A DNA stretch of 64,000 nucleotides from Candidatus Poribacteria bacterium (GTDB lineage Bacteria > Poribacteria > WGA-4E > JAJDTR01): assembly GCA_965222225.1 (NCBI GenBank), contig CBDCTK010000002.1, positions 4,896,001 through 4,960,000 of the forward strand, written 5' to 3'. Positions 4,531-48,253 of this stretch are shown here, piece after piece. The notes beneath the pieces were generated by a model, which did not search any database, was not told where the DNA came from, and saw only the letters and a list, made by a program, of their open reading frames with translations. A program made the position numbers and the translations under genes. Positions within the stretch are counted from its first letter, which is position 1. The number at the start of each line of letters is the position of its first letter.

Positions 4531-4581
4531 GTCAAGTGACTGAACAGGGAACGCGATAGTAAATCCCGTGCGATAGAGAAC
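4531..4581 (+). repeat. 34-bp GA-hairpin mini-repeat (one full unit plus a right half)
   Basis: GTC-aagtgactgaacagggaac-gcgatagtaa-ATC followed by gtgcgatagag; matches the units at 7305, 13664, 20120, 28506 and 48130. Confidence 0.75.
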
Positions 4582-4775
4582 TTTAAGGTTGCACAATATC
4601 AGAAACCGCTGACGACTTTTTCAATAGTCAACCAAAAAGTTAGACAATCAAAATCTCTCCCTCCTTGCATTCAACGTTTGATTCACACCATTTGTTATGC
4701 TACTTAAATGTACAAAGTCGAGTTTAATTGGAATACATATGAGCTAACGATGTGTTCTCCTAATGCGGAAAGAGA

Positions 4776-6239
4776 ATGAAGAACATGGAAAAAGAGATAC
4801 CATTAAACAAGATTGACGATTACCGTTGGCGCATCCCGAAAAGCTATCAGGAAGGCATGCGCGTCGATGGGATTGTCTACGCAAATGAAAAACTGCTCCG
4901 ACAGGCAAAGAGCGACGAGGCACTGCAGCAAGTCGCAAATGTAGCGCATCTCCCCGGAATCGTCAAACACTCGCTAGCCATGCCGGATTTGCACTGGGGC
5001 TACGGCTTTGTAATCGGCGGTGTCGCTGCCACAGATCCTCGTGCGGATGGCGTTGTGTCGCCAGGTGGCATTGGGTACGACCTCAATTGCGGCGTGCGTC
5101 TGATCCGCACGAATATAAAGGCTTCCCAATTGAAGGGCAGGACTCGAAACCTCGTCGACAGACTTTTTGAGAATATCCCCTGCGGCGTCGGTTCTAGTGG
5201 CAAGATTCGCCTCTCAATTCAAGAAGAACAGAAGATGCTTGAGAAGGGATCTCGTTGGGCGATCGAACGGGGGTACGGCATACCTGAAGATCTCGGATTC
5301 ACGGAAGCGAACGGACGTCTCGCGTCTGCAGATGCTACCGCCGCGAGCAAACGCGCCCTTGAGCGCGGGAAGAATCAACTTGGCACACTCGGCTCGGGGA
5401 ATCATTTTCTGGAAGTGCAACTGGTAGACCGCATCCTTTATCGGGAGGCGGCGGATGCTATGGGCTTGACCGAAGGACAGGTTTGTGTGATGATTCATAC
5501 CGGATCGCGAGGTTTCGGCTATCAGGTTTGCGATGAGCATGTCAAGACGTGGGTTAAGGTCGCGCAAAAGTACGGCATTGACCTCCCTGACCGTCAACTG
5601 GCAGCTGCGCCAATTAACTCGCCGGAAGGGCAGGATTATCTTGCCGCGATGGCGTGCGGAGCCAACTATGCTTGGAATAATCGGCAGTGCATCACCCACT
5701 GGGTACGGCAAGTGTTCATGGATTTCTTCGACACCAGCCGAAATGAGCTAGGATTGGAATTGGTGTACGATGTGGCGCACAACATCGGTAAGTTTGAAAA
5801 ACACAAGGTTGATGGGGTTAAACGGGAACTGTTTGTGCATCGAAAGGGAGCAACACGCGCCTTCCCGGCGGGACACCCGGAAATTCCCGAGAAGTACAAG
5901 AAGATTGGCCAACCGGTTCTGATCCCCGGCGATATGGGGACTGCTTCCTATGTGCTCGTGGGAAGCCCAGCCGCGATGGAACAAACCTGGGGCACAACGT
6001 GCCACGGCGCGGGAAGAATGCTATCTCGTCGGAAGGCAATTGAAGCGACAAAGGGGCGGGCAATTGATCGAGAACTTGAAAAACAAGGCATTTTTGTGCG
6101 TGCCGAGGGTCGTCGAACCTTGCATGAGGAGGTCCCGGAAGCCTACAAAGATGTCGATGAAGTTGTCAAAGTGGTTGATGCAGCCGGGCTGTCACGGCGC
6201 GTCGCTCGGCTGCGTCCTATTGGTGTAATCAAGGGATAA
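4776..6239 (+). CDS. rtcB: RNA ligase RtcB
   Basis: AMPDLHWGYGF, GYDLNCG, GSGNHFLE, HTGSRG, HRKGAT and HGAGR motifs. Confidence 0.97.
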   Translation: MKNMEKEIPLNKIDDYRWRIPKSYQEGMRVDGIVYANEKLLRQAKSDEALQQVANVAHLPGIVKHSLAMPDLHWGYGFVIGGVAATDPRADGVVSPGGIGYDLNCGVRLIRTNIKASQLKGRTRNLVDRLFENIPCGVGSSGKIRLSIQEEQKMLEKGSRWAIERGYGIPEDLGFTEANGRLASADATAASKRALERGKNQLGTLGSGNHFLEVQLVDRILYREAADAMGLTEGQVCVMIHTGSRGFGYQVCDEHVKTWVKVAQKYGIDLPDRQLAAAPINSPEGQDYLAAMACGANYAWNNRQCITHWVRQVFMDFFDTSRNELGLELVYDVAHNIGKFEKHKVDGVKRELFVHRKGATRAFPAGHPEIPEKYKKIGQPVLIPGDMGTASYVLVGSPAAMEQTWGTTCHGAGRMLSRRKAIEATKGRAIDRELEKQGIFVRAEGRRTLHEEVPEAYKDVDEVVKVVDAAGLSRRVARLRPIGVIKG

Positions 6240-6247
6240 TCGCCCAA

Positions 6248-7222
6248 TTACGCCTTGTAGAGATGCCTCACGTAACTTTGATAGCCGTTAAACATGTCCG
6301 TCGATCGACGCTCGCCAGTGCCAATCATACGTTCCGATGCTTGCGACCAGCGAGGATGAGGAACGGTCGGATTCACATTTGCCCAAAAATCGTATTCTCG
6401 TGGCGCCAACGTGTTCCAGAAGGTGCGCGGCTTACGTTTGGTGAATTCGATACTGACAATCGACTTGATGCTCTTGAAACCGTATTTCCACGGTACAATC
6501 AGACGGATCGGAGCGCCGTGTTGTTTGGGGAGAACATGACCGTAAATGCCTGTAGCAAGCAAGGTAAGTTCGTTCATTGCCTCTTCAATGGTCAATCCCT
6601 CAAAATAGGGCCACGGCAAACGACCTTGCTTCTGTTGAGGTGCTTCGTTTGGACGAAGGAATGTGAGCATTTTCACGTATTTCGCAGATGACTTGGGCTG
6701 CACCAAATTGACCAACTCCTTCATGGGAAAGCCGATCCACGGCACCACCATCGCCCACGCCTCGACGCAGCGAAAGCGGTAGATCCGTTCTTCAAGGGGC
6801 ATTTTCTTGACGAGGTCGCTGATGTCGACCGTCATTGGATTTTCTACCTGTCCCGTGATTTCAATCTCCCACGGGCGTGTCTGAAACTTGTCGACCAATT
6901 TCCACACGCGATCTTTGGTGGACGTGAATTCATAAAAATTGTTGTAAGACCCGGCAACAACCTCATCGGTAAACTCAGCATCCACGGTAAAGTTTTCATT
7001 GTGTGGCACATCAATTTTCTGTGCTTGTGCTTCCTTGAGTTGCTCCTCCACACCTTTTCCCTGTGCCCAAGCGCAGCCGTTCATTAACGTCAGTGCGCCA
7101 GCCCCCGCCAAGCCCATATTCTTCATAAACTCGCGTCGGCTAACGTAATCCGATTCCGGCGTTACTTGGTTTTCAGGAATCTCCCATCCTTTGGGAATTT
7201 TAATCAGCATATTTACACGCAA
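6248..7222 (-). CDS. msrP: Protein-methionine-sulfoxide reductase catalytic subunit MsrP (Tat-exported molybdoenzyme)
   Basis: Tat motif SRREFMK; YNNFYEF, RFRCVEAW, PWKYGFKSIK and HPRWSQASER. The start is probably the ATG at 7210. Confidence 0.95.
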   Translation of the reverse strand: MRVNMLIKIPKGWEIPENQVTPESDYVSRREFMKNMGLAGAGALTLMNGCAWAQGKGVEEQLKEAQAQKIDVPHNENFTVDAEFTDEVVAGSYNNFYEFTSTKDRVWKLVDKFQTRPWEIEITGQVENPMTVDISDLVKKMPLEERIYRFRCVEAWAMVVPWIGFPMKELVNLVQPKSSAKYVKMLTFLRPNEAPQQKQGRLPWPYFEGLTIEEAMNELTLLATGIYGHVLPKQHGAPIRLIVPWKYGFKSIKSIVSIEFTKRKPRTFWNTLAPREYDFWANVNPTVPHPRWSQASERMIGTGERRSTDMFNGYQSYVRHLYKA

Positions 7223-7232
7223 CCTTTCCTAA

Positions 7233-7441
7233 TACTATTTCGCGTCATTAAATAATAGTGCGTATGATGCTCAATTGTATCATTCTCTTTCTCCGTAGGC
7301 GGGCATCAAACGACCGAAAAGGGAGTGCAATAGAGATCCCCTTGCCCGCCTTGCGCAGTGACAAAGCACCTTACACCACTCTACACAAGTTTCTTTACTT
7401 GATCTGCGCAATCAATGCACTTGAATATTCGAGAAATGGTA
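7233..7441. mobile_element. MITE-like element with TACYATTTC terminal inverted repeats, carrying a GTAG-REP and a GA-hairpin unit
   Basis: Left end TACTATTTC (7233), right end GAAATGGTA (7433-7441). The body aligns by eye with 28580-28700 and 48014-48253. Confidence 0.6.
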
Positions 7442-7575
7442 TAAAAATACATGCAACGGTTCTCGGAATACCGTTCGGCTCCCGCGTTCTTGCACACGTC
7501 TACACACACTTGACACAGAAATGTTCCGGCAGTAGGTTTGGTTGTATGGTCAATACAACTAAAAATCTTACATTT

Positions 7576-7602
7576 CTGTAGGAGCAAAACTCGCTCCTAC
7601 AG
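7576..7602. repeat. GTAG-family REP-like palindrome
   Basis: CTGTAGGAGC-aaaactc-GCTCCTACAG; a near-identical half lies at 53507-53524. Confidence 0.7.
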
Positions 7603-7722
7603 TAGGCTTGCCACAACAATCTTCAATCGTCATATCGCCCATCTCTATTCTACCAACGGGACGACGTATGAAAACCGGGGATTTAGGTTCATATAACGCT
7701 GATAGTGAATCATGAAATTTGT

Positions 7723-7751
7723 TTGACAGAGCACCTCTGACAAGGTACTAT
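7723..7751 (+). promoter_or_regulatory. sigma70-type promoter of the dppA-like gene
   Basis: TTGACA-N17-TACTAT about 70 bp upstream of the ATG; AGGAG RBS. Confidence 0.6.
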
Positions 7752-7819
7752 TTTTGGTTGAAGCCGACCTTATTTTCTAACAACATAACGAGATTTGTCA
7801 ACTGCAAAGGAGCCAAACT

Positions 7820-9397
7820 ATGTATAGACGCCTTCAGGCACTTATTACAGCGGTTTTATTAGTTTCAGCATATCCGGTAGATGCTGCCGAGAACGCCCCA
7901 GTAATTGGAGGCACACTGATTTTTGGTCGCGGCGGGGATTCTGTGGGGTTGGACCCAGCCCATGAAGAGGATGGCGAGTCCTTCAAGGTTTGCGAGAATG
8001 TCTACGACACGCTGGTACAATATCAAGACGAAAGCACGGAGGTTGAACCTGCGTTAGCCGCATCGTGGGAATCGTCGGCTGATGGACTGAGGTGGACATT
8101 CCACCTGCGGGTAGGCGTAAAGTTTCACGACGGTACGGCTTTCAACGCGGATGCTGTGCTATTCTCTTTGAACCGCCAACATGATCCGAGCCACCCGTTC
8201 CACAAAGTCGGAGGCACGTCCATATACTGGTCGGACACCGGGTTGGCAGATACCGTTGATAAGATTGTCGCCTTGGACGATTATACTGTCCAGATTGTTC
8301 TCAACCATCCCTATGCTCCTTTCATCGCTACGTTAGCCATGGGACCGTTTGCAATTGTCAGCCCAAGCGCCGTCAAAAAGTGGCGGGAGGATTACACCAA
8401 TCACCCCGTTGGCACGGGAGCGTTCAAATTTGTGCGTTGGGATCGAGGAGATAAGGTTGTTCTCGAAGTGAACAAGGATTACTGGGGCGGGCGCCCAAAT
8501 TTGGACCGCATCATTTTCCGATCAATTCCTGACAATTCCGTGCGGCTCATCGAATTGCAGAACGGCAGCATTCATGCCATGGAGTTCCCCAATCCTGATG
8601 ATTTGCCCCAAATCCGCGAAGATCCAAACCTCGCCGTCGTTGAGGGACCTGGTATGAATGTGGGTTACCTCGCAATGAATGTGGATAAGAAACCGTTGGA
8701 TAACCTCAAGGTTCGTTTGGCAATCAACCATGCCATAAACAAGCCGGCAATTGTCGGACATCTCTATCAAGGAATGGGCATACCCGCAAAGAATCCCATT
8801 CCACCGACGATGTGGGGGTACGATGATGGGATTGAGGATTACGCCTACAATCCGGAGAAATCAAAGCAATTGTTGGGGGAAGCCGGATATCCGGACGGCT
8901 TTACGACAACCTTATGGGCATTGCCGGTGCCGAGGCCCTATATCCCCAATGGTCGAGCGCTGGCAGAGGTGATTCAATCCGATCTGCGGCGTGTCGGGAT
9001 TGAGACGAAGATTGTGACCTTCGACTGGGGCACGTACCTCGAAAAAACAAAACATGGCGAGCATGACATCGCCATGCTGGGCTGGTCTGCAGACTTGGGG
9101 GATCCCGATAATTTCTTTTACTACCTTTTGAGCAAATCCGCAGCCGAAAAGCCGGCGGGCAACATCTCCTTTTATCGGAGTGACGCCATGCAGGAAATCC
9201 TCGATCAAGCGAGGTCAATCACCGACCGGGAAAAGCGAATTGAACTGTACAAGAAAGCGCAGGAAATCTTCCACAACGATGTGCCATGGGTGCCAATCGC
9301 GCATTCCAAGAAAGCGGTGATTACTAACAAGCGGGTGAAAAATCTAAAATTACATCCGACGGCGTGGCGATATTTCAGGCAGATTTGGCTTGAGTGA
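7820..9397 (+). CDS. ABC transporter peptide/nickel substrate-binding protein (family 5, DppA-like)
   Basis: Signal peptide, PALAASWESS, GVKFHDGT, PVGTGAFKF, PRPYIPN and GWSADLGDPDNF. Confidence 0.93.
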   Translation: MYRRLQALITAVLLVSAYPVDAAENAPVIGGTLIFGRGGDSVGLDPAHEEDGESFKVCENVYDTLVQYQDESTEVEPALAASWESSADGLRWTFHLRVGVKFHDGTAFNADAVLFSLNRQHDPSHPFHKVGGTSIYWSDTGLADTVDKIVALDDYTVQIVLNHPYAPFIATLAMGPFAIVSPSAVKKWREDYTNHPVGTGAFKFVRWDRGDKVVLEVNKDYWGGRPNLDRIIFRSIPDNSVRLIELQNGSIHAMEFPNPDDLPQIREDPNLAVVEGPGMNVGYLAMNVDKKPLDNLKVRLAINHAINKPAIVGHLYQGMGIPAKNPIPPTMWGYDDGIEDYAYNPEKSKQLLGEAGYPDGFTTTLWALPVPRPYIPNGRALAEVIQSDLRRVGIETKIVTFDWGTYLEKTKHGEHDIAMLGWSADLGDPDNFFYYLLSKSAAEKPAGNISFYRSDAMQEILDQARSITDREKRIELYKKAQEIFHNDVPWVPIAHSKKAVITNKRVKNLKLHPTAWRYFRQIWLE

Positions 9398-9451
9398 TGG
9401 GGACAGTAAGAACGACGGTTCCGGCACAATCCCCGCGAATTGCGGCAGCGG

Positions 9452-9538
9452 TTTCTCGTCAGGTGCAAGTATCTGGCAGGGAACGGTGAGATGGTGGGTG
9501 TAGATGTGGTGTTTTCCTTTGAAATCAAGAGTGGGTAG
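9452..9538 (-). pseudogene. Remnant of the N-terminus of a Type III R-M Mod (site-specific DNA methyltransferase) gene
   Basis: The minus strand reads (L)PTLDFKGKHHIYTHHLTVPCQILAPDEK after an AGAAGGAG RBS. This resembles the MPTLxFKGK..HHLTVP start of Mod subunits; the start codon is degraded and similarity is lost after ~29 codons. Confidence 0.6.
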
Positions 9539-9576
9539 GTTCGCTCTCCTTCTCTGGTGCTAAATGTTCATTCGTC

Positions 9577-10419
9577 CTATATGAGTTTGTTTAGATCAAT
9601 CGGCAATTCTGCCTGCTTCATTTCTTTAGCCAACCTCAATTGCCATCCATCGGGACTATCCATGGACACATAGAGTATTCCGTAGATATCTGAAGGTAGT
9701 TCAACCTCCTCTTTATGAAGGACACAAATGCGCTCCCGACCTAGTTTTCCCATGAAATAGCCGAGTTCCAAGATAACATTTTGGCGTGCCCTGGGTTTGG
9801 TTTGCTCTTTGTCATCTTTTCGCGCGCCAACATCGTCGGGCGTCAGCAAGATTATTGCATATCCTGCCTCTCTAGCATGCGCTTCAAACTTCTCAATGAT
9901 TGTATGGCCTTCATTTGCCTTTTCATCAAGTATGATTGGATTTAAGTCAAACGTCTTAACGAAATTCACCATGGCGAGTCTAGCCACTTCGTCATGTCCA
10001 TGGACGATAAAAACATCGTCTCCAAGGTTGCACACCGGATTGTCTGAAACCTTGTTGTTGCGGGTGCGCCGGGAAATATCTGAATGTGCGTCAAATAGTT
10101 CGAGTCGGTCTCGAATTCCTTCCAGGCTACTTATACTTTCTCCCATATCTGATTGATACGCCGCGTAATATGGTTCTGTACAGAATTGGTGATAAAAATT
10201 AATGTACCCTACGATGTCCGGATTATCGAATAGCCGTGCCAATAAATCTAGGTTGTATCTCGACCAATTGTTAGCTTCTAGACGCAATTTGTCCAATTCC
10301 TCGTCTGAATCAATTGTCCGATCAGTACGGAGCCATCGTCCTTTCTCGAGTTGTCTCTCAATCTTCGTTTCGGCGTATTCCTTACTCATAATTAACCTTG
10401 GCAGGTTTTGTTCTCCCAT
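9577..10419 (-). CDS. CAP12/Pycsar-type TIR-domain (predicted nucleotide-binding) protein with an uncharacterised N-terminal domain
   Basis: VFIVHGHDE, TIIEKFE, AIILLTPDD and RARQNVILELGYFMGKLGRER. Confidence 0.9.
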   Translation of the reverse strand: MGEQNLPRLIMSKEYAETKIERQLEKGRWLRTDRTIDSDEELDKLRLEANNWSRYNLDLLARLFDNPDIVGYINFYHQFCTEPYYAAYQSDMGESISSLEGIRDRLELFDAHSDISRRTRNNKVSDNPVCNLGDDVFIVHGHDEVARLAMVNFVKTFDLNPIILDEKANEGHTIIEKFEAHAREAGYAIILLTPDDVGARKDDKEQTKPRARQNVILELGYFMGKLGRERICVLHKEEVELPSDIYGILYVSMDSPDGWQLRLAKEMKQAELPIDLNKLI

Positions 10420-10483
10420 AATTTTTCCTCCATTCTTGCACTAGCCCGACGCGGGGCATTAACGAGTAGTCTTAATTCTGTGT

Positions 10484-11632
10484 TTAAGGTCTCGAACGTG
10501 GCATCAGCTCATAAACCACAATATGCTCCCATTTACGTTTGGATCGATGAGTTGCGACACGTTTGGTTTGCCGGCTTTCCACGCCAAATCCAGCGTTGTT
10601 GATGATATTCTCCAGATTTTGGATGGCTTTGGGACCAGAGGCGTCCGCATATCCAAGGAGTATCCGTCCATCCGGCTTTAGATGTTGAGGAACCTCGTCG
10701 AAGAACCTGCGTAAAATACGCTGGTCTTCGTCGTGAATGGCGAATTCCGCGCGATTACGCGCCCGCGAAACCACCCACGGGGCATTAAAAATAAGGAGAT
10801 CGAAACAATGTTCTGACGGAACCGCCTCAAAAAGATCGCCAGACGGCAATAGCTGAATTAATCCCGCATGATTTTGGCAACGACTCATGTTGACTCGGGT
10901 CGTCGCAACCGCTTCGGGCAAGAGATCCGACGCGTGAATCTTTACCTCCAAATCTGCCAACTCCTGCGCTGCCAATAGCGTCAAGCATCCACTCCCACAT
11001 CCTATCTCTAATACTTCCGCACATTGTGGGAGATGCATCTTGATTGCCTGAAGTCCATCTTGAAAACAGGCGATTGTCTCCTGTGAACGCGGCGGGAGTA
11101 CGTTCTCGAACGCGGCTAACGAGGTGCCGAGGGCGGGAATGGGGTATTCTTGACAAAGCGCCGTCTTGAGTTTCTGAATTATTGCAATCGGCAGTAGAAA
11201 TGGACGCTGGTTGTTCGCGCCCGGATTTTCCCCGACTAACTCAAGCAAATACGGGAGATTCGGAGGTGGATCGATTTGCAGATTGCCCGCCTCATCCGCA
11301 TAACACATCAGGCGTGACATCGCAGAGACGCTTTCGCTGGGGTTCGGGCGTTTATCGCGCGGGTTGAAATCTCGTCGGCGTTTCGGCTTCACTATTCTTG
11401 GTGCGAGTTCTTTCTTCTTGCGATCGGCATAATCCAAAACCTCCACAATCCGATCCCACTTGCCGGAGAGCACCGCCACACCACCACGCCGAAGGTGGGT
11501 GAAGATGCGATCGAGTTGCCCAAGATTGCTGTCTGAAAAATGTCTAAGGGAGGTATCGTCCGAGGCGAGTTCTCTGAATTGCGCTGGGATAAAGACCTCG
11601 CCTAGGTCGCTGACTACATGAAAGGCGTGCAT
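10484..11632 (-). CDS. Class I SAM-dependent methyltransferase (HemK/MTS-like)
   Basis: LEIGCGSG motif I, GDLFEAV and FDLLIFNAPW motif IV-like. Confidence 0.85.
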   Translation of the reverse strand: MHAFHVVSDLGEVFIPAQFRELASDDTSLRHFSDSNLGQLDRIFTHLRRGGVAVLSGKWDRIVEVLDYADRKKKELAPRIVKPKRRRDFNPRDKRPNPSESVSAMSRLMCYADEAGNLQIDPPPNLPYLLELVGENPGANNQRPFLLPIAIIQKLKTALCQEYPIPALGTSLAAFENVLPPRSQETIACFQDGLQAIKMHLPQCAEVLEIGCGSGCLTLLAAQELADLEVKIHASDLLPEAVATTRVNMSRCQNHAGLIQLLPSGDLFEAVPSEHCFDLLIFNAPWVVSRARNRAEFAIHDEDQRILRRFFDEVPQHLKPDGRILLGYADASGPKAIQNLENIINNAGFGVESRQTKRVATHRSKRKWEHIVVYELMPRSRP

Positions 11633-11730
11633 CGGGATGGGGTGATGCTGAATTGGTTCGAAATCAAACGATTTGACTTGTCAGAGAAACCGGGTTTTCC
11701 TACAACCCTAATTTTCTTCTCACGTTACTC

Positions 11731-12780: not shown

Positions 12781-12788
12781 TTTTCCTC

Positions 12789-13625
12789 CTAAGAACTCTC
12801 CGCCGACGCCAACACTTGGTGGACCATTTCCTCCCATCGACCTTCAAATTTTTCGCCAAATTCGGCTTCGCCTCCCGTCGCGCGGGGACCTCGCAGCATT
12901 GGCCGAGTCATTTTCTCCTTCTCCCAAATCTCCAAACCGCCGTAATTGTTGTGAAGAAAATGAAGGGCAACGCCTGCCCGATCCTTATCGGAGAGATTGG
13001 TTTTCGTGCAATGCGCCACGCCGTAACAAAAAAACACAACTCCGCCTGCTTTCAATTCGACGGGGACAGCACGGTGTTCCGGTGGATCGCATCGGATGTG
13101 ATGGTCGCTGAACGGGTCTCGGTAGTGATGGTAGGATTCCCGGTGGCTGCCGGGGATTACGTGAAGACATCCGTTTTCAACGTTCGCGTCATGAATTGCA
13201 ATCCACATCGCGGTGCCGCGCAGCGGGTCGGCAATCTTGAAGTAGGCGTTGTCCTGATGCCAGTTTGTACCGATTCCCACCTTGGGCGGTTTCCAAAAGG
13301 CTTGATCCAGTTCCAACATGAAATCGTCCCCGATGAGTTGCTCCACGACGGATAGCACTTTCGCGTTGAATACGAGCGCCTTGTGGAGATCGCTTCGATT
13401 GTTCAACGGAATTACTTGGAGGTTCTGCCGTTCGCCATAATTGTCACGTTTTGTTCCATTCTCTTGAACAGCGCAGTTGATTCCTGTCCCGTGTTTCAAT
13501 TCGACATCGTAGATTCGCTCTAGTTCAAACCGAAGCGCCCGTGCCTCTCGCGGCGTAAAGAATCCCTCGAAGCAGATACAGCCGTCATTTCGGAACCGAA
13601 GAAGTTGTGCTTTGGATAATTGCAT
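12789..13625 (-). CDS. Phytanoyl-CoA dioxygenase (PhyH) family Fe(II)/2OG oxygenase
   Basis: WHQD, NGCLHVIPGSH, distal H (VAHCT) and R (DRAG). Confidence 0.92.
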   Translation of the reverse strand: MQLSKAQLLRFRNDGCICFEGFFTPREARALRFELERIYDVELKHGTGINCAVQENGTKRDNYGERQNLQVIPLNNRSDLHKALVFNAKVLSVVEQLIGDDFMLELDQAFWKPPKVGIGTNWHQDNAYFKIADPLRGTAMWIAIHDANVENGCLHVIPGSHRESYHHYRDPFSDHHIRCDPPEHRAVPVELKAGGVVFFCYGVAHCTKTNLSDKDRAGVALHFLHNNYGGLEIWEKEKMTRPMLRGPRATGGEAEFGEKFEGRWEEMVHQVLASAESS

Positions 13626-13653
13626 TTATCGAAGAAATTGCTTCCTCACTTTG

Positions 13654-13816
13654 GTAGGGTGGGATCAAACGAGTGAATAACGAGTGCGATAGAAATCCCC
13701 TCAAATGAGTGAATAGCGATCAACTGAGTGGTTAACGAGGGATCAAGCGAATGGATAATGAGTGCGATAGTGAATCCCCATAGAAGATCCCGTGCGAAAG
13801 AGGTCCCCTGCCAACC
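13654..13816 (+). repeat. GTAG-REP containing an array of GA-hairpin mini-repeats
   Basis: GTAGGGTGGG...CTGCCAACC encloses full units at 13664-13697 and 13742-13776 plus partial units. Confidence 0.75.
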
Positions 13817-13918
13817 ATCCGACGCTATTGGTATCCAATACGCACCTTCAATATCCTCCTGAGAAACCGATGGATGCTGCCGAGATTTCTCCACAAAACT
13901 CGGTTTCTTCAGATTTTC

Positions 13919-16019: not shown

Positions 16020-16055
16020 TGACCAATTGCGTTGTCAAGCCACAGAGGGAAAAAC

Positions 16056-16373: not shown

Positions 16374-16413
16374 GGGCAAAATGCGTTAATCATAGCGTCG
16401 TCGAGAGGGAATT

Positions 16414-17046: not shown

Positions 17047-17070
17047 AACTTTCCAACCTTGTATAAACCT

Positions 17071-19980: not shown

Positions 19981-20119
19981 TGTTGTTTCCCGGTTAATTG
20001 GACAAGATCTACGTGAAATTGACAGATGCTCGGTAATTCAATGCCATAGGCAATGCCATTTCCCTATATTTACCGTGGATTAACAGCATCAGCCAAGTCC
20101 TTCCTATACTCGGCAAGCC

Positions 20120-20153
20120 GATCGCTATCGCCCTCGTCATTCACTCGGCTGAT
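20120..20153 (-). repeat. 34-bp GA-hairpin mini-repeat
   Basis: Minus strand ATC-agccgagtgaatgacgagg-gcgatagcg-ATC. Confidence 0.75.
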
Positions 20154-20333
20154 TCCCTCTGGGCGCTTTCGTGCGCGTGGGATTGGCATCGCAATTCGCT
20201 GTCGCCCCGCTGGGGCTTCTGATGTGTGACGAATCGGCGTTGTTATTCACTCTGAAAATCTCATTTTAGATTTGATGATGGTCGATCGCCTAGAATCAGG
20301 TGGAATTACCCCGAATGAGCAATTGATGTTGGC

Positions 20334-28450: not shown

Positions 28451-28702
28451 TAGGCGTGGATCAACCGAGTGAATAACCAGGGATCAAGAGTATGGATAAT
28501 CACCGATCAACTGACTGGTTAAGGAAGGCGATAGTAAATCTTGATAGAGTTCCCATAGGGAACGCGATAGAGATTTTAGTGCGATAGAAATCTCCTTGCC
28601 CCGCCGACTTTGCGTGGAGATAAGGCTTCTTACTCCGCTCCATGTACGTTTCTTCACTTGATCCGCGTAATCAATGCACTAGTGTTTTAGATAGATGGTA
28701 TA
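28451..28702 (+). repeat. REP with stacked GA-hairpin mini-repeats plus the right arm of the MITE-like element
   Basis: TAGGCGTGG...TTGCCCCGCC encloses two left halves, one full unit (28506-28540) and right halves. 28580-28700 aligns with 7325-7441. Confidence 0.75.
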
Positions 28703-37278: not shown

Positions 37279-37456
37279 CTTGGCTATTGAACATAATTCT
37301 AACTGCGGAGAGACTCAACTCAGGAGAAATAGCGTGTGGTTGATTGAGGCAAGACGGAGGTATGTCCCTACAGATTCACATAACTACACATCAAATTCCT
37401 ACTAAGCTTTTCTTAAAATGTTTGCTACATATTCGATCAAAGGAGATTCAAAGTTA

Positions 37457-38647: not shown

Positions 38648-38650
38648 CGT

Positions 38651-39529: not shown

Positions 39530-39595
39530 CGGTGTAGGTCGAAGCAATTTTCTTGTCGGCCTTTCCGCTAGCCAACGCAGCATTTCCCCACCGCC

Positions 39596-40477: not shown

Positions 40478-40549
40478 TGGGCGGTCGCCAAGTGGTAAGG
40501 CACGGGTCTTTGGAACCCGCATTCGTAGGTTCGAGTCCTACCCGCCCAG
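40478..40549 (+). tRNA. tRNA-Gln (anticodon TTG), CCA not encoded
   Basis: Acceptor stem TGGGCGG/CCGCCCA, D-loop AAGTGGTAA, anticodon arm CGGGT-CTTTGGA-ACCCG, T-arm GTAGG-TTCGAGT-CCTAC. Confidence 0.97.
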
Positions 40550-40757
40550 CACTCCAAGGGAAGTCCGTTATTATAGCGCTGGCTAATCCGATTTCGTTCC
40601 CACCTTTGATGAGCGTATCATTTCTAGAGTTGGCGCTATCATCACAATCAAGAAAACAGGCATTTTTCGCTGACAAAGAGCCGATGATGTCTGCGGGACA
40701 AGAAGCATTGTAGCAAATTTTGATCTTTACGGAAAAAAATGACTGGGAGCAAAATAC

Positions 40758-41420: not shown

Positions 41421-42550
41421 AGCTGGGCCGACGTTGTTTATACACTACCATCGCTTTGTGGACGTCAGTTGCTCTTAGTTTCCAGCAATCCCCCTCGATT
41501 CGTTTTGTGGATCGAGGGGGAAAGATGCTCGCCCAAGTTGAAACGGTCACCCGAGACGGAGTGCTGTATTTGCCAGTTATTGCGCTGCGTCGAATCGTTG
41601 ATTCCGACATGAGGAGGAAATACGACCTCACCGGCAAACTCACCCTAGTTCTCAATCAAAAACGTATCGAGTTGCACCTAGGAAAACCGTCCGCCACGGT
41701 TGCTGGGCAGCCAGTGCCAATAACACTATCCCACCCGCCGTTGGTCATCGACCAACGACCAATGCTCCCAATTACATTTTTTACAGAACTACTTCCCAAC
41801 ATATACGATCTTGAAGTGGCTTACAACCCTGAGCTTCAACGCGTGCGTATCGTGGAGACGAAGGATACACGTCCACTTGCAGGGCCACAAGAAGGGTTTC
41901 TTGTTGTCGTTAACCCGGGGCATGGAGGAACAGACAGGGGATATCAGGGAAGTGACGGCGTACTTGAGAAGGAAATTACACTAGCGATAGCTAAGCATGT
42001 TGAAGCCTATTGCCAACAGAATGGAATCCGGGTTGTACTCACACGAGAAGGGGATTATGAGAGACGTCCACTAGAACGTGTACAAATTGCGAATCAAAGC
42101 GGAGGCCAACTTTTCCTGAGCCTACATTGCAATGCTTCTTATACGGCTGAAGCGGAGGGCATTCACTTATACGTCAATAGTTCAGTGTGGCACCGCCAAT
42201 CGGACAATTCTACATCTTCTACCGGTAATGTACCCTATCACAGAGAAATTACGACACTTTCCCAAGAGGATTTCCTGGATCAAAGTCGAGGCCTTGCATC
42301 CATTTTTCGAGAGCAGTTGAAAACTTCTACGGAAGGCCTTACCCCATTGACAGAGATTCCGCTGACAACTTTGTCCGAGGTTTATATGCCTGCTCTCTTG
42401 ATTGAGCTTGGTTACTTATCGAATGCAGCAGATCAAGAAAAGCTTACCGACTTTGGCAGCCAAGAAGCCATAGCGGGAAGCATTGGGGCAGCAATTGTGG
42501 AGTATCGAAACGCACTCAAAACCGGACAGAATTCCAACAATGGCGAATAA
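41417..42550 (+). CDS. N-acetylmuramoyl-L-alanine amidase (Amidase_3) with an N-terminal stalk domain
   Basis: PGHGG, EKEITL, SLHCNA and LIELGYLSN. Confidence 0.88.
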   Translation: MKLGRRCLYTTIALWTSVALSFQQSPSIRFVDRGGKMLAQVETVTRDGVLYLPVIALRRIVDSDMRRKYDLTGKLTLVLNQKRIELHLGKPSATVAGQPVPITLSHPPLVIDQRPMLPITFFTELLPNIYDLEVAYNPELQRVRIVETKDTRPLAGPQEGFLVVVNPGHGGTDRGYQGSDGVLEKEITLAIAKHVEAYCQQNGIRVVLTREGDYERRPLERVQIANQSGGQLFLSLHCNASYTAEAEGIHLYVNSSVWHRQSDNSTSSTGNVPYHREITTLSQEDFLDQSRGLASIFREQLKTSTEGLTPLTEIPLTTLSEVYMPALLIELGYLSNAADQEKLTDFGSQEAIAGSIGAAIVEYRNALKTGQNSNNGE

Positions 42551-43163
42551 GTCTAAACGAGGACGGTTAAAATTCAAATTGCTTCTCGGTGCTGTCGTTG
42601 CTGCTGCTCTTGCTCTAGTCTCTGCATTTCTCTTTTTTAACCGTGCGGAAGTATTGCCACCTCGACCACCGCTGCCACCTGCTGCAAGTTCTCCGAATAC
42701 CTCCCCACCACTCCAACAAATCAAGCTAGTTTTTTTTCAACCGGAATCGCTTGAACTCGTTGACTTTGTACGGGAGTTGCGTCTATCTAACGACAACCCT
42801 GAGCGCCTTAAACAAATTATCAATGCACTCCTTGAAGGGCCTCCACCTACCTTGATGAACACTATCCCCAAGGGGACGCTTCTATACGAGGTGTATCTTG
42901 ACGAGCAGTCCACCGCTTACTTGGATTTTTCGGGCGCCTTAAGCGCCGCGCATATCGGTGGTACCACAGCGGAATCACTGACTGTTCAGACAATTCTAAA
43001 AACAGTCCAATCAAATTTTGGCGAAGACATACAGAATGCGCAACTACTCATTGAAGGCCAAGAAGTTGATACGATTGCTGGGCACGTTGATATTTCAAAG
43101 CCTTTATCATTAGCGGCAATTCTACAAGAGGACCGAGGCCAATCGTATAAGGGGTTGCAGTAA
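42540..43163 (+). CDS. GerMN domain protein
   Basis: N-terminal TM helix; IINALLEGP, AYLDFS and TIAGHVDIS. Confidence 0.85.
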   Translation: MANKSKRGRLKFKLLLGAVVAAALALVSAFLFFNRAEVLPPRPPLPPAASSPNTSPPLQQIKLVFFQPESLELVDFVRELRLSNDNPERLKQIINALLEGPPPTLMNTIPKGTLLYEVYLDEQSTAYLDFSGALSAAHIGGTTAESLTVQTILKTVQSNFGEDIQNAQLLIEGQEVDTIAGHVDISKPLSLAAILQEDRGQSYKGLQ

Positions 43164-43220
43164 CCAGAAAATCTTTTCGTTGCACTACTGGATTAGTGAA
43201 TCTCTGGAGTCCATCAAATC

Positions 43221-43823
43221 ATGTTTCGGCTGAAAAACAGAGTCATAGCATGTAACCCGTGTAAATTGATTGTTGGTCTCGGAAACCCGGGGCGACGGTA
43301 CGAGATGACAAAGCACAATGTTGGTTTTTGGGTCATTGACGAGCTTTTGCAGAGATGTGGAATTGGGAAGTTGAGAGGAATGTGTGGAGCACTTGCGGGT
43401 ACGACGAAATGGGACGGGGACGAACCAATATACGCTAAACCAACTACCTACATGAACAACAGCGGCGAGGCAGTTGCCGCGTTGGTTCACAGATTCAATC
43501 TCTCATTCTCCGATTTGTGCGTTGTATACGACGATCTTAACCTGGAGATTGGGGTATTGCGATTGCGAAAGAAAGGTAGCGATGGCGGACACAACGGCAT
43601 GAAGTCGATTATTCGTTACCTTAACACAGAAGAATTCCCTCGCTTGCGAATAGGCATTGGTGCGCCAACCCATAGTCAAATTGATTATGTGTTGAGTGAG
43701 TTTGATGAACTCGACCAAGTTAGGATAAACCATGTTGTTCAACGGGCTGCGGACGCGGTCGAAATGCTAATAGAAGACGGAATTCAGACTGCGATTAATC
43801 AATTTAACGGCAGAATTGAGTGA
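43221..43823 (+). CDS. pth: Peptidyl-tRNA hydrolase
   Basis: GLGNPG, HNVGF, KPTTYMN, DDL and GGHNG. Confidence 0.96.
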   Translation: MFRLKNRVIACNPCKLIVGLGNPGRRYEMTKHNVGFWVIDELLQRCGIGKLRGMCGALAGTTKWDGDEPIYAKPTTYMNNSGEAVAALVHRFNLSFSDLCVVYDDLNLEIGVLRLRKKGSDGGHNGMKSIIRYLNTEEFPRLRIGIGAPTHSQIDYVLSEFDELDQVRINHVVQRAADAVEMLIEDGIQTAINQFNGRIE

Positions 43824-44053
43824 CTGACTGGCACATGCGAGTGATAAGAATGCATACAGACAACACGCGCTGATGTGTTTTCGTTATTCATTTTGGTTGG
43901 AGGATCGGAGTTGATAAGGTACTGCCAGCACTTTAACATACATTACCCAGAGTAAGCATCATGTATTCTGTTCACGAACAAAATAGCCGAAATAGTTGGT
44001 GAAGAGACCGATAGACATTCCTATTGGTTGCGCGACCCCAAGGAATTTGACAC

Positions 44054-45565
44054 ATGAAGCATACTGAATTTATTGTTATATGTCTCGTTGCCATATTGAC
44101 AGGGGCATCGTTAGGAGGCGCGGTAGACATAGATCCGGCAGAGGTAGAGAAAATGTTTCGCTTACCGCAGGATGATTGGTTGAATTTAGAACTAATGGGC
44201 ACAAAAGCCGGTTACGCGCACATTTATATGGATAGTGCGGTTTACGAAGGCGAAGATGTTCTACGAACACGCATTGACATGGTCATTGAGGTGAAACGAG
44301 GGGACTGGGGGTTGCGCTTTGAGAACACCCGAATCTCCTATATAGGGATGGATCTCATCCCCCGCCATTTTGTTTTGACCTCGAATGAAACTGGTGCCGA
44401 GAAGCGAGTTGAAGGACGTGTTAAGGAGGGGATTGCCTACATAGAAACCACGCTTGCCGGAAAAACAACACAATCCGAAAAACCGATTCCACCTGACGCT
44501 ATTTTCGAGCAGACAATCCCTTATCTCCTGCTCAAAGAAGGCATATCGGTTGAGGATGAGTATCAACTACAGATTTTCAACCTCGATCTCCTCCAATCTG
44601 TGGGCACAAGGGTCAAAGTCGTCCGTGAAGACCAAATCGATTGTGAAGGACAGGGCGTGCCTGTTTATGTGGTCGAATATACAATGGACATAATGGGAGG
44701 TCTAACGACTGTAGCATGGATTAGTTCGGAAGGTCGGACGTACCGGACAGAAATTCCCTTGACGGGTTTCCCTTTGGTACTGACAAAGACCGATATGCAG
44801 ACCGCACTAGGAGAAACAGGGCAAGTCGATGTGATTTTGAACACCAAGATTTATCCACAAGGAAAGCGACCGATAGCCAATTCGCCGCATCTGAAAGCCG
44901 CACTACGATTGGCAAAAGGAATTTTGAGGGAAGCTGTGAAGACTGACCACCGACAGAGTATAATCAGTGCCGAGGATAATCCTAATATCGGAGTTTTGGA
45001 AATCAATGTTCCACCGGTTGACCTCTCGAATACGCCGTCGTTACCGCTTTCTTTGGAGGAATCGCAGATTGAACTTGCGCAATTTCTTAAACCGAGTGTA
45101 TACATTCAGGCGGACCATTCTGCGATTCACGCGAAAGCGGTTGAAATCTTGAACGGGGAAACCAACTCGTGGAAGGCGGCTAAAAAATTGTGTCACTGGG
45201 TTCACGAGAACGTTTCCGACAAAAATCTGCAAACGGGTTTCGGTTCCTCACTACAAACTCTTGAATCCTTGGAAGGGGATTGCACGGAGCATACGGTACT
45301 TTTCATTGCACTGGCACGCTCGGCAGGTATTCCGGCGCGCATCTGCGCGGGAATCGTATTTCAGCGAGATGCGTTCTATTACCATTTCTGGCCCGAGGTC
45401 TACGCGGGTGAATGGATAGCAATGGAGCCAACGCTCGGGAAGCTTCAAGCCGATGCCAATCACATCCAACTGGCGGGCAGCACATTGGAATCCGACTCCA
45501 TGCTGGAGTATGGCGAAGGTGTTCTGCGGACGTTGAATCAACTAGAGATTGAGGTGATTGAATGA
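44054..45565 (+). CDS. Secreted transglutaminase-like domain protein
   Basis: Signal peptide; GDCTEH, HFWPEVY and WIAMEPT. Confidence 0.85.
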   Translation: MKHTEFIVICLVAILTGASLGGAVDIDPAEVEKMFRLPQDDWLNLELMGTKAGYAHIYMDSAVYEGEDVLRTRIDMVIEVKRGDWGLRFENTRISYIGMDLIPRHFVLTSNETGAEKRVEGRVKEGIAYIETTLAGKTTQSEKPIPPDAIFEQTIPYLLLKEGISVEDEYQLQIFNLDLLQSVGTRVKVVREDQIDCEGQGVPVYVVEYTMDIMGGLTTVAWISSEGRTYRTEIPLTGFPLVLTKTDMQTALGETGQVDVILNTKIYPQGKRPIANSPHLKAALRLAKGILREAVKTDHRQSIISAEDNPNIGVLEINVPPVDLSNTPSLPLSLEESQIELAQFLKPSVYIQADHSAIHAKAVEILNGETNSWKAAKKLCHWVHENVSDKNLQTGFGSSLQTLESLEGDCTEHTVLFIALARSAGIPARICAGIVFQRDAFYYHFWPEVYAGEWIAMEPTLGKLQADANHIQLAGSTLESDSMLEYGEGVLRTLNQLEIEVIE

Positions 45566-45678
45566 GGAATTTCTATGATTCGACAACCAGTACCTATCAA
45601 TATGCCATTTACACAAATACCGTTTTGATGGCGATGCATTGGACCAACGAATAATTCGACGTAACACTGAAGGGAACA

Positions 45679-46800
45679 TTGATGCTTAAAGGATTGTTCA
45701 AACGAAAAAGGGATGATGAAGAGAAACAACCGCTACGAGAACAGCGAGAGAACGCAGATTTTACTGCTAAATCGGACATGGGGCAAGTCCACGATGGGCC
45801 GCCTGACACTCTGCCTCCCGCACTAAACGACGACCTTGCAGGGAAAACAGGTTGGTTAAGTCGCCTCAAAGCCGGTTTGTCGAAAACGCGAAACAACCTC
45901 ATGGGTCAAATCGAGAATTTGCTTCGCGTTGGCAGGAAGATTGATGAAGAACTGCTGGAGGAGATAGAAGAGATTCTGATCCAAGCCGATGTCGGTATTG
46001 ACACGACGCTGTTGCTGATGGACAATGTTCGGGTGAGAGTGAAATCTCGAGGGCTGAGTGATTCAGCGGTCTTGGGGGAAATTATTAAACAGGAGATTCT
46101 CAATATCCTTGGAGACGACAAGCCGCTGGATATTGACGCTGCGTCTCCATACACGATACTTGTGCTTGGCGTGAATGGCGCTGGCAAAACCACCACAATT
46201 GGCAAACTCGCACATCGCTTCAAGTCCGAGGGAAAGCACGTCCTGATTGCAGCCGGTGACACTTTCCGTGCGGCAGCCGCCGATCAACTCTCAATCTGGT
46301 CGGACCGCGCTAATGTTGACTTGATACGTGGCAGTGATGGATCGGATCCGGCGTCGGTCATCTTTGACGCGGTTCAGGCTGCCAAATCCCGTCACGCGGA
46401 TGTCTTGATTGCCGACACTGCCGGACGGCTTCATACAAAAAGACCGTTGATGGACGAATTATCAAAGATTGGACGTGTGATGGCGCGTGACCTTCCGGGG
46501 GCGCCCCACGAGGTGTTGCTTGTGATTGACGGAACAGCGGGACAGAATGCCATTATCCAGGCGAAGGTTTTTAATGAGGCCGTTCCAGTGACTGGCGTGG
46601 CTGTCACGAAATTGGATGGAACCGCTAAAGGTGGCATTGTTATTGCCGTGAAAGGAGAAATCGGTGCCCCCGTGAAGTTGATTGGCATCGGAGAGAAACT
46701 GGACGATTTACAAGATTTTTCTGCAACGGAATTTGTGGACGCACTCTTTGTGCGAGACGAAACTCCCCGAGAGGACTTAAGAGTAGCCAGAAATACTTGA
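45679..46800 (+). CDS. ftsY: SRP receptor FtsY
   Basis: GVNGAGKTTT, DTFRAAA, DTAGR and TKLDGTAKGG. Confidence 0.97.
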   Translation: MMLKGLFKRKRDDEEKQPLREQRENADFTAKSDMGQVHDGPPDTLPPALNDDLAGKTGWLSRLKAGLSKTRNNLMGQIENLLRVGRKIDEELLEEIEEILIQADVGIDTTLLLMDNVRVRVKSRGLSDSAVLGEIIKQEILNILGDDKPLDIDAASPYTILVLGVNGAGKTTTIGKLAHRFKSEGKHVLIAAGDTFRAAAADQLSIWSDRANVDLIRGSDGSDPASVIFDAVQAAKSRHADVLIADTAGRLHTKRPLMDELSKIGRVMARDLPGAPHEVLLVIDGTAGQNAIIQAKVFNEAVPVTGVAVTKLDGTAKGGIVIAVKGEIGAPVKLIGIGEKLDDLQDFSATEFVDALFVRDETPREDLRVARNT

Positions 46801-46847
46801 CTGTGAAAACACCAAAAATCTTTACTACGTGAAGGAATATTCTAACA

Positions 46848-47957
46848 TTGGCCTCAAAAGATGAACTTAAGTCGATTCTGAATGCCCCAATATTTCTGGC
46901 GCCAAATACATTTCTACATTTCTATGGCGGCGGAAAACTACGGGCGGAATTCATGGGGGAACCTGAACCTAAAGATGATTACCGATCTGAAGAATGGATG
47001 TTTTCAACAAATCGCGCAATCACTCCAGGCCGCGATAATCCACCGGATAAAGGGTTTAGTCGCATTCAACTTCCAGGCGGCGAAATGGTGTTGCTCAAGC
47101 ACCTGTTGGAGGCGTTTCCCAATGAAACGCTGGGTGAGCGCCATGTCGATAAATTCGGTCCGAATTTGGGAGTGCTCCTCAAAATCTTTGATGTCGGCGA
47201 CAATTCCCACATTCCTATCCACTGGCACCCCGCACCCGAGTTCGCCCAAGAACACCTCAATTCCCCGTTCGGCAAAACCGAGGCGTGGATTATCATTGGG
47301 ACAAGACCCGGCGCGAAGGCTTGGATTGGATGCAAGGAGACCCTTTCAAGGGCGGAATTTGCGGAGTTGATGCACGGGCAGGACATTGAATCTTTGCGCA
47401 GTTTGATGCACTTTCTAGAGCCGAAAGTTGGCGAGGTCATTTACGTTCCACCCGGCGTCATCCATTCGCTCGGCAGCGGCTTGTGTGTTCTTGAGCCGCA
47501 AGAGCCAACTGACTGGAGTATTCTAGCCGAATGGGAGGGATTCCCATATGAGAGTGAGGACGGGACGCTCGGGCTGGGCTGGGATCTGGCGCTTAAAGCG
47601 GCAGATTTTAACAAGCTTGAGGTAGATGAATTGAATGGCTATATCAAGCGGACGCCGGAAAAGATTCGAGGAGAAAACGGAAACCACGAGGAACGGCTAC
47701 TTCCTGACGAGGCAACGCCATATTTTCAGGCATCACGTTTAATCATCGATTCAAAGCTGAACATGCCTGCGGGGAGAGGATTTCACTGCCTCGTAATCTT
47801 ACAAGGTCGAGGTAAACTGAGTGGCACGTTTGATGATATTCCGATTGAGCGTGGAAAATCGGCCTTTATTCCTGCCTGCCTCTCAGCGTACGACATTGTC
47901 AACGCGGGTGACATGCCGATGGAAGTCGTCTGCTGCTATCCACCAGCCGTGACTTAA
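46848..47957 (+). CDS. Class I mannose-6-phosphate isomerase-like cupin
   Basis: PIHWHP, KTEAW, IHSLG and EPQEPTD. Confidence 0.8.
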   Translation: MASKDELKSILNAPIFLAPNTFLHFYGGGKLRAEFMGEPEPKDDYRSEEWMFSTNRAITPGRDNPPDKGFSRIQLPGGEMVLLKHLLEAFPNETLGERHVDKFGPNLGVLLKIFDVGDNSHIPIHWHPAPEFAQEHLNSPFGKTEAWIIIGTRPGAKAWIGCKETLSRAEFAELMHGQDIESLRSLMHFLEPKVGEVIYVPPGVIHSLGSGLCVLEPQEPTDWSILAEWEGFPYESEDGTLGLGWDLALKAADFNKLEVDELNGYIKRTPEKIRGENGNHEERLLPDEATPYFQASRLIIDSKLNMPAGRGFHCLVILQGRGKLSGTFDDIPIERGKSAFIPACLSAYDIVNAGDMPMEVVCCYPPAVT

Positions 47958-48013
47958 CCTGCTGGCTGTGCCGTGAATACGCTCTAGAGATTTGGCATTC
48001 CGTCCGTTACTTG

Positions 48014-48253
48014 TACCATTTCGTTTGAATAACGTTGCGTATAATGTTTTGCAATTATACTACTATGAAGAAACCAATGCCAACCATTACCTTGTACACC
48101 AACCCTGGTAGGCGGGGATCAAGCGAACGATCAACTGAACGAATAGTGAAGGCGATAGTAAATCCTGTAGTGAGTGCGATAGAGATCTTATTGCCCCGCA
48201 TTGGAGACACTTGATTGACGCCAGCAATGCACTACGAATCTAGGGAAATGGTA
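48014..48253. mobile_element. MITE-like element (TACCATTTC...GAAATGGTA) carrying a GTAG-REP with nested GA-hairpin units
   Basis: Perfect 9-bp terminal inverted repeats; REP GTAGGCGGGG...CCCCGC at 48108-48199; unit 48130-48164 nested inside unit 48118-48187. Confidence 0.7.

Follow-up and report, generated by a model that had tools for sequence, protein, structure and literature searches.

The stretch of DNA analysed here, hereafter the window, comprises the 64,000 nucleotides (nt) from 4,896,001 to 4,960,000 of contig CBDCTK010000002.1 in a Candidatus Poribacteria assembly (GCA_965222225.1). It holds several copies of a very small dispersed repeat, hereafter called the unit, which is organized around a hairpin with constant tandem G.A mismatches (GA/GA). 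An earlier note, made from the sequence of this DNA alone, had described seven full units. A search of the 64 kb with the pattern ATCAANNGANNNNNNNNNGANNGCGATAG, allowing up to two mismatches, returned exactly seven sites, at 4531, 7305, 13664, 13742, 20125 (minus strand), 28506 and 48130, against 0.04 expected by chance, and none of 100 shuffles reached seven. All the units of the note were recovered by this consensus search, and the arms given for them proved correct on re-reading the window. The loop is 5 nt long in seven of seven units and all seven fall between long open reading frames (ORFs), as had been claimed. With a covariance model that we built, the seven units score 47-66 bits, and the next best match in the window reaches at most 12.4 bits.

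Units and half-modules in the window

Unit 1 occupies positions 4530..4567 of the plus strand (arms GTGACT/GGGAAC, loop GAACA, then GCGATAG-TAA-ATCCC; 50.0 bits), and its 5' ATCAA reads GTCAA. Directly behind it lies a stacked 3' half-module, GTGCGATAGAGAAC (4568..4581, +; class 'CCGTGCG'), in which the tail of an outer unit resumes. Another dispersed repeat, ~125-200 nt long and located at 4532-4736, starts at this same unit, and five sister genomes contain numerous copies of it at 72-85% identity. Unit 2 (7304..7340, +; arms ACGACC/GGGAGT, loop GAAAA, GCGATAG reading GCAATAG; 53.9 bits) is carried by the hairpin GTAGGCGGGC...GCCCGCC of a dispersed element of ~215 nt (7232..7449, +).

Unit 3 is complete (13663..13700, +; arms ACGAGT/ACGAGT, loop GAATA; 66.4 bits). 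It is followed by two stacked 5' half-modules, (C)TCAA-ATGAGT-GAATA-GC and G-ATCAA-CTGAGT-GGTTA-ACGAGG (13700..13740, +), belonging to outer units that are broken by unit 4 (13741..13779, +; arms GCGAAT/ATGAGT, loop GGATA; 60.6 bits) and closed downstream of it by two stacked 3' half-modules, ATAGAAGATCCC and GTGCGAAAGAGGTCCCC (13780..13808, +). Unit 5, on the minus strand (20118..20154; arms CCGAGT/ACGAGG; 47.4 bits), is decayed, with ATCAG at its 5' end and the loop GAATG. Unit 6 (28505..28542, +; arms CTGACT/AGGAAG, loop GGTTA; 47.1 bits) is preceded by two stacked 5' half-modules, the second of which is degenerate (28459..28504, +), and followed by a row of stacked 3' half-modules, GATAGAGTTCCC, ATAGGGAAC, GCGATAGAGATTT and GTGCGATAGAAATCTCC (28543..28595, +).

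The clearest nesting in the window is that of unit 7 (48130..48165, +; arms CTGAAC/GTGAAG; 55.8 bits), a 36-nt piece running from ATCAA to AATCC that forms a clean insertion after the first loop G of an outer unit (48117..48190, +). Deleting 48130-48165 restores GATCAA-GCGAAC-GTGTA-GTGAGT-GCGATAG-AG-ATC, with four of four pairs. At 53452..53480 (+), half of a GTAG-tagged repetitive extragenic palindrome (REP), GTAGGGTGTGCACTGCG, is fused directly to a 3' half-module, ATAGAAATCC. As an inventory of the window, the earlier list holds for the full units and misses the half-units and nested units.

Hairpin covariation, unit boundaries and insertion points

The window comes from a genome assembled into two contigs, with a total of 5.70 Mb and a G+C content of 49.8%. 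The 29-nt core of the unit, ATCAA-NNGANN-N5-NNGANN-GCGATAG, occurs there in 727 exact copies, and in 1096 copies if up to two mismatches are allowed; a reversed-pattern control gave 0, 0, 2 and 43 matches at up to 0, 1, 2 and 3 mismatches, respectively. Most of the well-paired modules (651 of 801) lie outside crude ORF calls, which cover 82% of the genome. Watson-Crick or G-T pairing is seen at the four variable pairs in 96.1, 95.9, 97.1 and 97.0% of the exact copies, compared with 52, 53, 50 and 80% after shuffling of the partners. Each variable pair shows 3-4 pair types, and the copies comprise 162 distinct stems and 311 distinct units. The stem letters are near-evenly spread, and the constant letters hardly change. 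In either arm, the base 5' of GA is never A and the base 3' of GA is rarely T (3 and 5 of 727). The commonest loops are GAATA (310 of 727) and GGATA (213 of 727), and a G stands at position -1 in 669 units.

A cross-genome alignment of 68 distinct sequences, drawn from the seven window units and 62 loci of other Poribacteria assemblies, has 97.9% paired cells. It contains 107 double-sided changes, against 19.8 +/- 5.4 after shuffling, and none of 500 shuffles reached 107; structures slid by 1-3 columns score 0.006-0.106, compared with 0.601 for the actual structure. Covariation of the four stem positions, which had been read from seven copies only, is far beyond chance both in this alignment and in the 727 copies. 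The ATC/GAT foot pairs are nearly invariant (one G-T and one unpaired cell in 204) and therefore give no evidence for or against pairing there.

Four units were folded. With RNA parameters, the GA strand of three of them has the covarying structure (foot, 2x2 loop, 2 bp, GA/GA, 2 bp, pentaloop) as its energy minimum, with a frequency of 0.36-0.47; the unit at 13742 takes another minimum fold. The RNA energies range from -4.8 to -7.0 kcal/mol, with z-scores of -0.69 to -0.92 in three units and +0.08 for the unit at 28506. With DNA parameters, the energies are ~0 to -1.6 kcal/mol and essentially no fold is predicted for either strand, and the complementary (TC) strand does not produce the covarying fold with RNA parameters. 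Nearest-neighbour models treat tandem G.A pairs poorly. As the predicted fold is weak, the evidence for the hairpin is the covariation and not the energy, and a protein partner is plausible.

Pairing declines as the constant letters are lost. It amounts to 96-97% in copies with all 16 constant letters intact (n=727), 89-97% at one change (n=234), 67-72% at two changes (n=135, a class that includes an unrelated repeated sequence, which was left in) and ~50% at three changes (n=131, of which ~43 are expected by chance). The decayed unit 5 has an orthologous copy in the genome of a sister species (G010) with two broken pairs. Taken together, the fall of pairing with the constant letters and the broken orthologue suggest that the structure is needed for spreading and not for staying; the hairpin would thus seem to be required for propagation rather than for a local function. 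The earlier proposal that structure rather than sequence is under selection stands in part: pairing is kept at the four stem positions around a constant GA/GA, loop and foot, but copies in place are under no apparent selection. Constraint at propagation combined with decay in place explains the diversity of the stems, and agrees with a population of active lineages whose sole constraint is pairing. Among the two-mismatch matches, an identical longer repeat with ACCAACTGATACCGGTATGATAGCAATAG was found at ~10-12 places (e.g. C2:263025, 288534 and 415585, C2 being a contig of the assembly); it probably represents an insertion sequence that has no relation to the unit.

The unit measures 36 nt plus a preceding G. 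When copies with identical cores and unrelated distal flanks are compared (2239 pairs), high identity is confined to position -1 (G, 0.89) and positions +1 to +7, and gives way to background further out; these limits mark the edges of the unit. The 68 identical 29-nt cores are represented by 451 copies in 297 flank contexts that are unrelated to one another, so that dispersal concerns the small unit as such and is not just a matter of transport within larger repeats. The mobile piece consists of ATCAA, a 17-nt hairpin (2 bp, GA/GA, 2 bp and the loop G-R-N-Y-A), GCGATAG and a 7-nt tail (N2-3 and ATCC or ATCCC), and it is pasted directly 3' of a G without target duplication. Nested copies provide the most precise view of this process. 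The 5' halves (G-ATCAA-hairpin) stack at a spacing of 23 nt, with the 3' halves (..GCGATAG-NN-ATCCC) stacked behind them. We deleted one complete inner unit at a time in silico and checked the outer core for intactness and full pairing. In 19 cases such excision re-creates an outer core that is intact and fully paired, with no letters duplicated or lost, and the excised piece is the core plus 7 nt, that is 36 nt, in 17 of the 19. In 13 cases the inner unit begins just behind the G that opens the loop, and in four it begins just behind the G next to arm 2 on its 3' side.

Besides its own loop and 3' foot, where insertion yields nested and stacked copies, the unit targets GTAG-tagged REPs, the ~215-nt element and the REP of a Y1 transposase described below. 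One GTAG-tagged REP, GTAGGGTG-CGCACTGC-GCACCAGCC, is present in 126 empty copies, and 8-9 further copies hold units with differing stems at one and the same point, CTGCG^CACC. A further REP subfamily of ~25 copies carries a unit with one common stem and evidently spread as REP and unit together. The ~215-nt element has a promoter-like TTGAAT...TATAAA end and a GTAGGCGGGG...CCCCGCC hairpin, with 46 BLAST matches in the genome and many in sister species; some of its copies are without the mini-unit (loop GGCGGGGCATCTTGCCCCGCC), and the whole element at 7232-7449 is missing at the orthologous site in two sister species.

Adjacent units within 300 nt of each other (279 pairs) are mostly in the same orientation (212, with a peak at 23 nt), the remainder being convergent (52, with a small peak of 10 pairs at 37 nt) or divergent (15); inverted doublets are not the main arrangement among these pairs. 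A tandem array with a period of 38 nt was found at C2:1578373-1578620, in which GTAGG-ATCAA-hairpin-GCGATAG-TCTT recurs with stems that differ between successive units. Several generalizations were tried and abandoned. A single junction rule does not hold, as losses of 0-4 letters vary by case and only the nested cases are clean. Loops of host hairpins are only modestly enriched as targets, flanks pairing over at least 7 bp being found for 46 of 727 units as compared with 17 in the control. Neither is there a 'home' region: the genes of the densest stretch, at 1.53-1.58 Mb, are ordinary and include no transposase, and 28 of its 36 ORFs have a Pfam match, among them haem and radical-SAM enzymes, ATP-binding cassette transporters and TPR proteins. 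We saw no longer element bounded by the unit's ends, and the genes flanked by units are ordinary.

Distribution, candidate enzymes and strand preference

A scan of one genome per prokaryote species matched at least 125 stretches, and among the 80 matches listed, all 80 are Candidatus Poribacteria assemblies. Poribacteria carrying the unit include sponge symbionts. In a set of 151 Poribacteria genomes, the exact core is found in all nine genomes of the window's genus, at 491-1123 copies each, and in all four genomes of one genus of a second family, at 154-174 copies each. Another genome has 17 copies and five have 1-3 each, and the exact core occurs nowhere else among the 151. The covariance model was positive in 17 of these genomes. 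Neither the model nor the exact core detected the unit in the 100 genomes of the largest, sister family, which has a similar biology. In genome G127, the 22 model matches lie on just 4 of ~130 contigs, which may reflect binning contamination rather than a third lineage. Stems are less diverse in the second genus, one core making up 19 of the 100 rows listed. No match to the unit was found in a plasmid collection. At gathering score, Rfam recognized only a tRNA gene (40478-40549) in the whole window, and its best match in 13550-13900 under permissive settings reached 22.5 bits against a gathering score of 91; no Rfam family matches the unit. A search of the literature on extragenic, palindromic or repetitive elements of Poribacteria gave only CRISPR or an unrelated method paper, in keeping with the suggestion of the earlier note that the motif may be undescribed. 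The family is real and striking, and apparently unpublished.

That note had also suggested a protein-recognized motif, and had pointed to REP-associated tyrosine transposases (RAYTs) and other HUH proteins of the genome as ones to examine. The genome contains five matches to the Y1 family (PF01797), but none of these genes could be tied to the unit. The best of them codes for a 157-residue IS200-type Y1 protein (NCBIfam, 65.8 bits for a cut-off of 55) that matches the TnpA structures 2fyx, 2xm3 and 2a6m, and in the window's genome its gene is flanked by inverted units. Orthologues of this gene occur in 94 of 151 genomes, and the REP that flanks them is a different one, AAGCCCCAGCGGGGCGACAGGTGTATAG. 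Beside this gene in other genera (loci L141, L149, L156 and L157), we noted the REP AAGCCCCAGCGGGGCGA(A/C)AGGTGTATAG in direct arrays with a period of ~52 nt and variable spacers. A RAYT-like gene at C2:3088870-3089350 (L133) has an in-frame TAG and is flanked by inverted GTAGGAGCGATCTCCAGGTCGCGA repeats; its family, in 107 of 151 genomes, carries GTAGGAGCGATCTCCAGGTCGCGA doublets, which are likewise invaded by units. A truncated RAYT remnant (C2:3560325-3560519) is flanked by inverted mini-units, and the two other Y1 genes are found in 4 and 20 of 151 genomes. The only match to RVT_1 in the genome is a 670-residue abortive-infection reverse transcriptase of the AbiA family (C2:4499563-4501572, L302; TIGR04499, 290.7 bits). 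It is patchily distributed, with in-frame stops in four of seven near-full-length relatives and two more relatives that are fragmentary, and it does not track the distribution of the unit.

The orientation of the units is organized regionally. Among pairs of neighbouring clusters no more than 20 kb apart, 69-72% share the same orientation, against a 51% baseline beyond 200 kb; the concordance reaches ~20-50 kb (runs test, z = -7.7). Relative to the flanking gene direction, 150 clusters are co-directional and 125 anti-directional (p = 0.15). Using GC skew corrected for gene orientation, we found a correlation with unit orientation of r = -0.33 to -0.38 in the window's genome (G000), and none of 2000 circular shifts gave a value as low. 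In a second species (G031), 60 evenly spaced 20-kb pieces totalling 1.2 Mb, with 111 clusters, gave r = -0.40 (p = 1.3e-5), with a piece-level rho of -0.51. A small sample of a third species, described below, did not show this. A link between orientation and GC skew is probable, the GA strand tending to lie on the C-rich strand. The dnaA gene is located at the main skew switch, so that the polarity looks standard, and by the usual reading the C-rich strand is the lagging-strand sequence. The TC strand may be recognized on exposed template, or the unit may enter the nascent lagging strand, or one orientation may survive better.

A replichore-wide strand bias is not directly visible, owing to the many skew switches of this genome, and a run of 27 same-strand copies in sister genomes was discarded, as both orientations are present in the DNA of that region. 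Contig C2 shows numerous reversals of GC skew and shares synteny with a sister species only in blocks of ~100 kb, which together indicate heavy rearrangement. A second DnaA-like gene (393-residue frame) was noted at C2:602775-603212.

Nature of the unit and related systems

The unit belongs with a known kind of element, the very small non-autonomous mobile repeats. Our preferred reading, to which we give a probability of roughly 0.55, is that it is a very small, non-autonomous piece of mobile DNA recognized as a single-stranded hairpin. A trans-acting protein would recognize one DNA strand folded as a weak, irregular hairpin. It would read the constant letters of the foot, the GA/GA and the loop, and would need only complementarity at the four other pairs. 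If only complementarity is required there, active lineages would drift through paired combinations and inserted copies would decay neutrally. The protein would most likely be a single-strand-specific HUH/Y1 enzyme, which is put forward as a candidate only. Since it is preferentially the C-rich strand that carries the GA sequence, exposure and recognition may concern the complementary TC strand instead.

A number of observations weigh against this reading. Mobility is read from static genomes, and the short-read contigs of other samples stop at units, displaying no polymorphism. Many junctions are unclean, with 1-4 target letters apparently gone relative to empty REPs or orthologous sites. The 122 genes flanked by units on both sides show no preferred arrangement, with 31 convergent and 29 divergent cases. 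In the window's genus the unit merely sits inside the AAGCCCCAGCGGGGCGACAGGTGTATAG REP, no enzyme being tied to it, and no Y1 family tracks the unit, as the four families occur in 94, 107, 4 and 20 of the 151 genomes and the unit in 17-19. In a third species (G115), a contiguous 700 kb with 36 clusters gave r = +0.28, which is of opposite sign and not significant. Moreover, the strand polarity of IS200/IS605 elements is the reverse of that of the unit.

If the unit were instead an ordinary REP, that is the cognate hairpin of a RAYT or Y1 transposase of this genome, the family would be a new member of the REP-RAYT systems. Short, intergenic, palindrome-like and highly repeated, it has the general appearance of one; arrays read GTAGG-ATCAA-hairpin-GCGATAG, the 157-residue Y1 gene and the RAYT remnant are flanked by inverted units, and GTAG occurs at most 16 nt upstream of 172 of 727 units, as compared with ~5% expected for a 4-mer. 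This GTAG, however, belongs to host REPs or arrays, and neither GTAG nor CGTC was found in the constant flanks of the unit itself, which are G-ATCAA and GCGATAG. Throughout the phylum, a different REP accompanies the orthologues of the flanked Y1, and the repeat of the RAYT-like family is GTAGGAGCGATCTCCAGGTCGCGA. The absence of a Y1 family with the distribution of the unit, and stacking at 23 nt in one orientation (212 of 279 adjacent pairs) in place of inverted doublets of fixed spacing, further make us regard this explanation as rather unlikely. An element acting at the RNA level, either a transcribed structured motif or a repeat spreading through an RNA intermediate, as is said to have been proposed for the SDR repeats of cyanobacteria, would account for the RNA minimum fold of the GA strand, which is the covarying structure in three of four units. 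An RNA-library contig also extends into the unit at 13664-13690, a weak indication since contigs give neither strand nor level and DNA carry-over is possible. The orientation of the units is nevertheless independent of flanking gene direction and follows DNA strand composition, the sole reverse transcriptase found is a patchy AbiA-family defence enzyme that is often interrupted by stops in relatives, and Rfam gave no match, all of which argue that such an origin is improbable.

We consider it very unlikely that the unit is a host-selected site working in place, such as a binding site for a nucleoid or replication protein, a terminator or a stabilizer of mRNA. Its great abundance between genes, the conservation of its constant letters across two genera and its regional orientation domains would suit such a role. 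Copies decay, however, with pairing dropping as the constant letters go and an orthologous copy having broken pairs; orthologous sites differ in whether they hold a copy, many copies are nested or truncated, orientation is unrelated to gene direction, and no unit was found in the 100 genomes of the biologically similar sister family.

The mobile hairpin that we favour can be compared with several known systems. REPs and REP doublets forming hairpins (REPINs), which depend on RAYTs of the Y1, HUH type, are described as short imperfect hairpins, non-autonomous and intergenic, with hundreds of copies (Bertels & Rainey 2011, PMC3116915; Di Nocera 2013, PMC3733652). Like them, the unit is a short, imperfect, extragenic palindrome in more than 100 copies, in a host genome that encodes Y1 transposases, and it often lies beside or inside GTAG-tagged REPs. 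Unlike them, it has no GTAG tag of its own and no cognate RAYT that we could find; it inserts into itself and stacks in one orientation in place of inverted doublets, and its stems covary freely, in 162 combinations, around constant mismatches.

The closest analogues in behaviour are the small dispersed repeats (SDRs) of cyanobacteria. SDR1-8 of Nostoc punctiforme, ascribed to work by Elhai in 2008, are reportedly 21-27 nt long, with a hairpin kept by compensatory changes, and are said to nest in themselves and to be embedded in other repeats. The unit is likewise very small, at 36 nt, with a compensatory hairpin, and it too nests in its own copies and in those of other repeats. The precise insertion point of SDR5 is GCG^ATCGC of the highly iterated palindrome HIP1 (Elhai 2015, PMC4390886). 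Similarly, the unit follows a G, mostly as GCG or GGG, and starts with ATC. A cyanobacterial origin of the DNA, which its richness in GATC and CGAT had at first brought to mind, was rejected, as the 5.7-Mb genome has only 120 HIP1 sites and the 80 matches listed in the prokaryote scan include no cyanobacterial record. The unit differs from the SDRs, which are reportedly confined to heterocyst-forming cyanobacteria, in its host phylum and thus falls outside that group by taxon; it also differs in length and apparently in sequence. To our knowledge, neither a GA/GA core nor a link to GC skew has been reported for SDRs.

Elements of the IS200/IS605 type transpose as single strands by means of the Y1 enzyme TnpA, 3' of a short target and without duplication, using imperfect hairpins and with a strand bias. 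The unit shares with them insertion directly 3' of a fixed target without duplication (19 clean nested cases, 17 of them after one of two G positions), an imperfect hairpin in place of inverted terminal repeats, and a strand bias tied to DNA composition. It has, by contrast, one central hairpin rather than subterminal hairpins at both ends, a single G as target rather than a tetra- or pentanucleotide, no linked tnpA gene, and a strand bias of opposite polarity to that of IS608. In integron attC sites, recombination likewise acts on the structure of a folded single strand, whose sequence varies while certain unpaired bases are conserved. The resemblance is one of principle only, namely recognition of a folded strand whose sequence varies; the unit is shorter than an attC site and seems to lack the R and L box consensus.

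A bolder proposal, which we hold to be doubtful, is that the unit represents a new class of ultra-small mobile DNA outside REP-RAYT and IS200/IS605, in which an unrecognized enzyme or a process at the replication fork would paste a 36-nt single-stranded hairpin beside an unpaired G, reading a few constant unpaired letters and leaving the stems free as long as they pair. If this were true, the family would, together with the cyanobacterial SDRs, be evidence for a widespread, unexplained mode of DNA mobility.

How repeats too small to encode anything spread in bacteria is only partly understood. REPs have their RAYTs, but the 21-27-nt SDRs of cyanobacteria have reportedly been without a mechanism since 2008. 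The family described here offers a clean system for this question, with a defined 36-nt unit that inserts at precise points, exact copies numbering from hundreds to ~1100 per genome and a measurable strand bias, and its covarying structure tells which letters are read and which need only pair. For Poribacteria themselves, the units break short-read assemblies, and together with the REPs that they invade they accompany heavy genome rearrangement between species.

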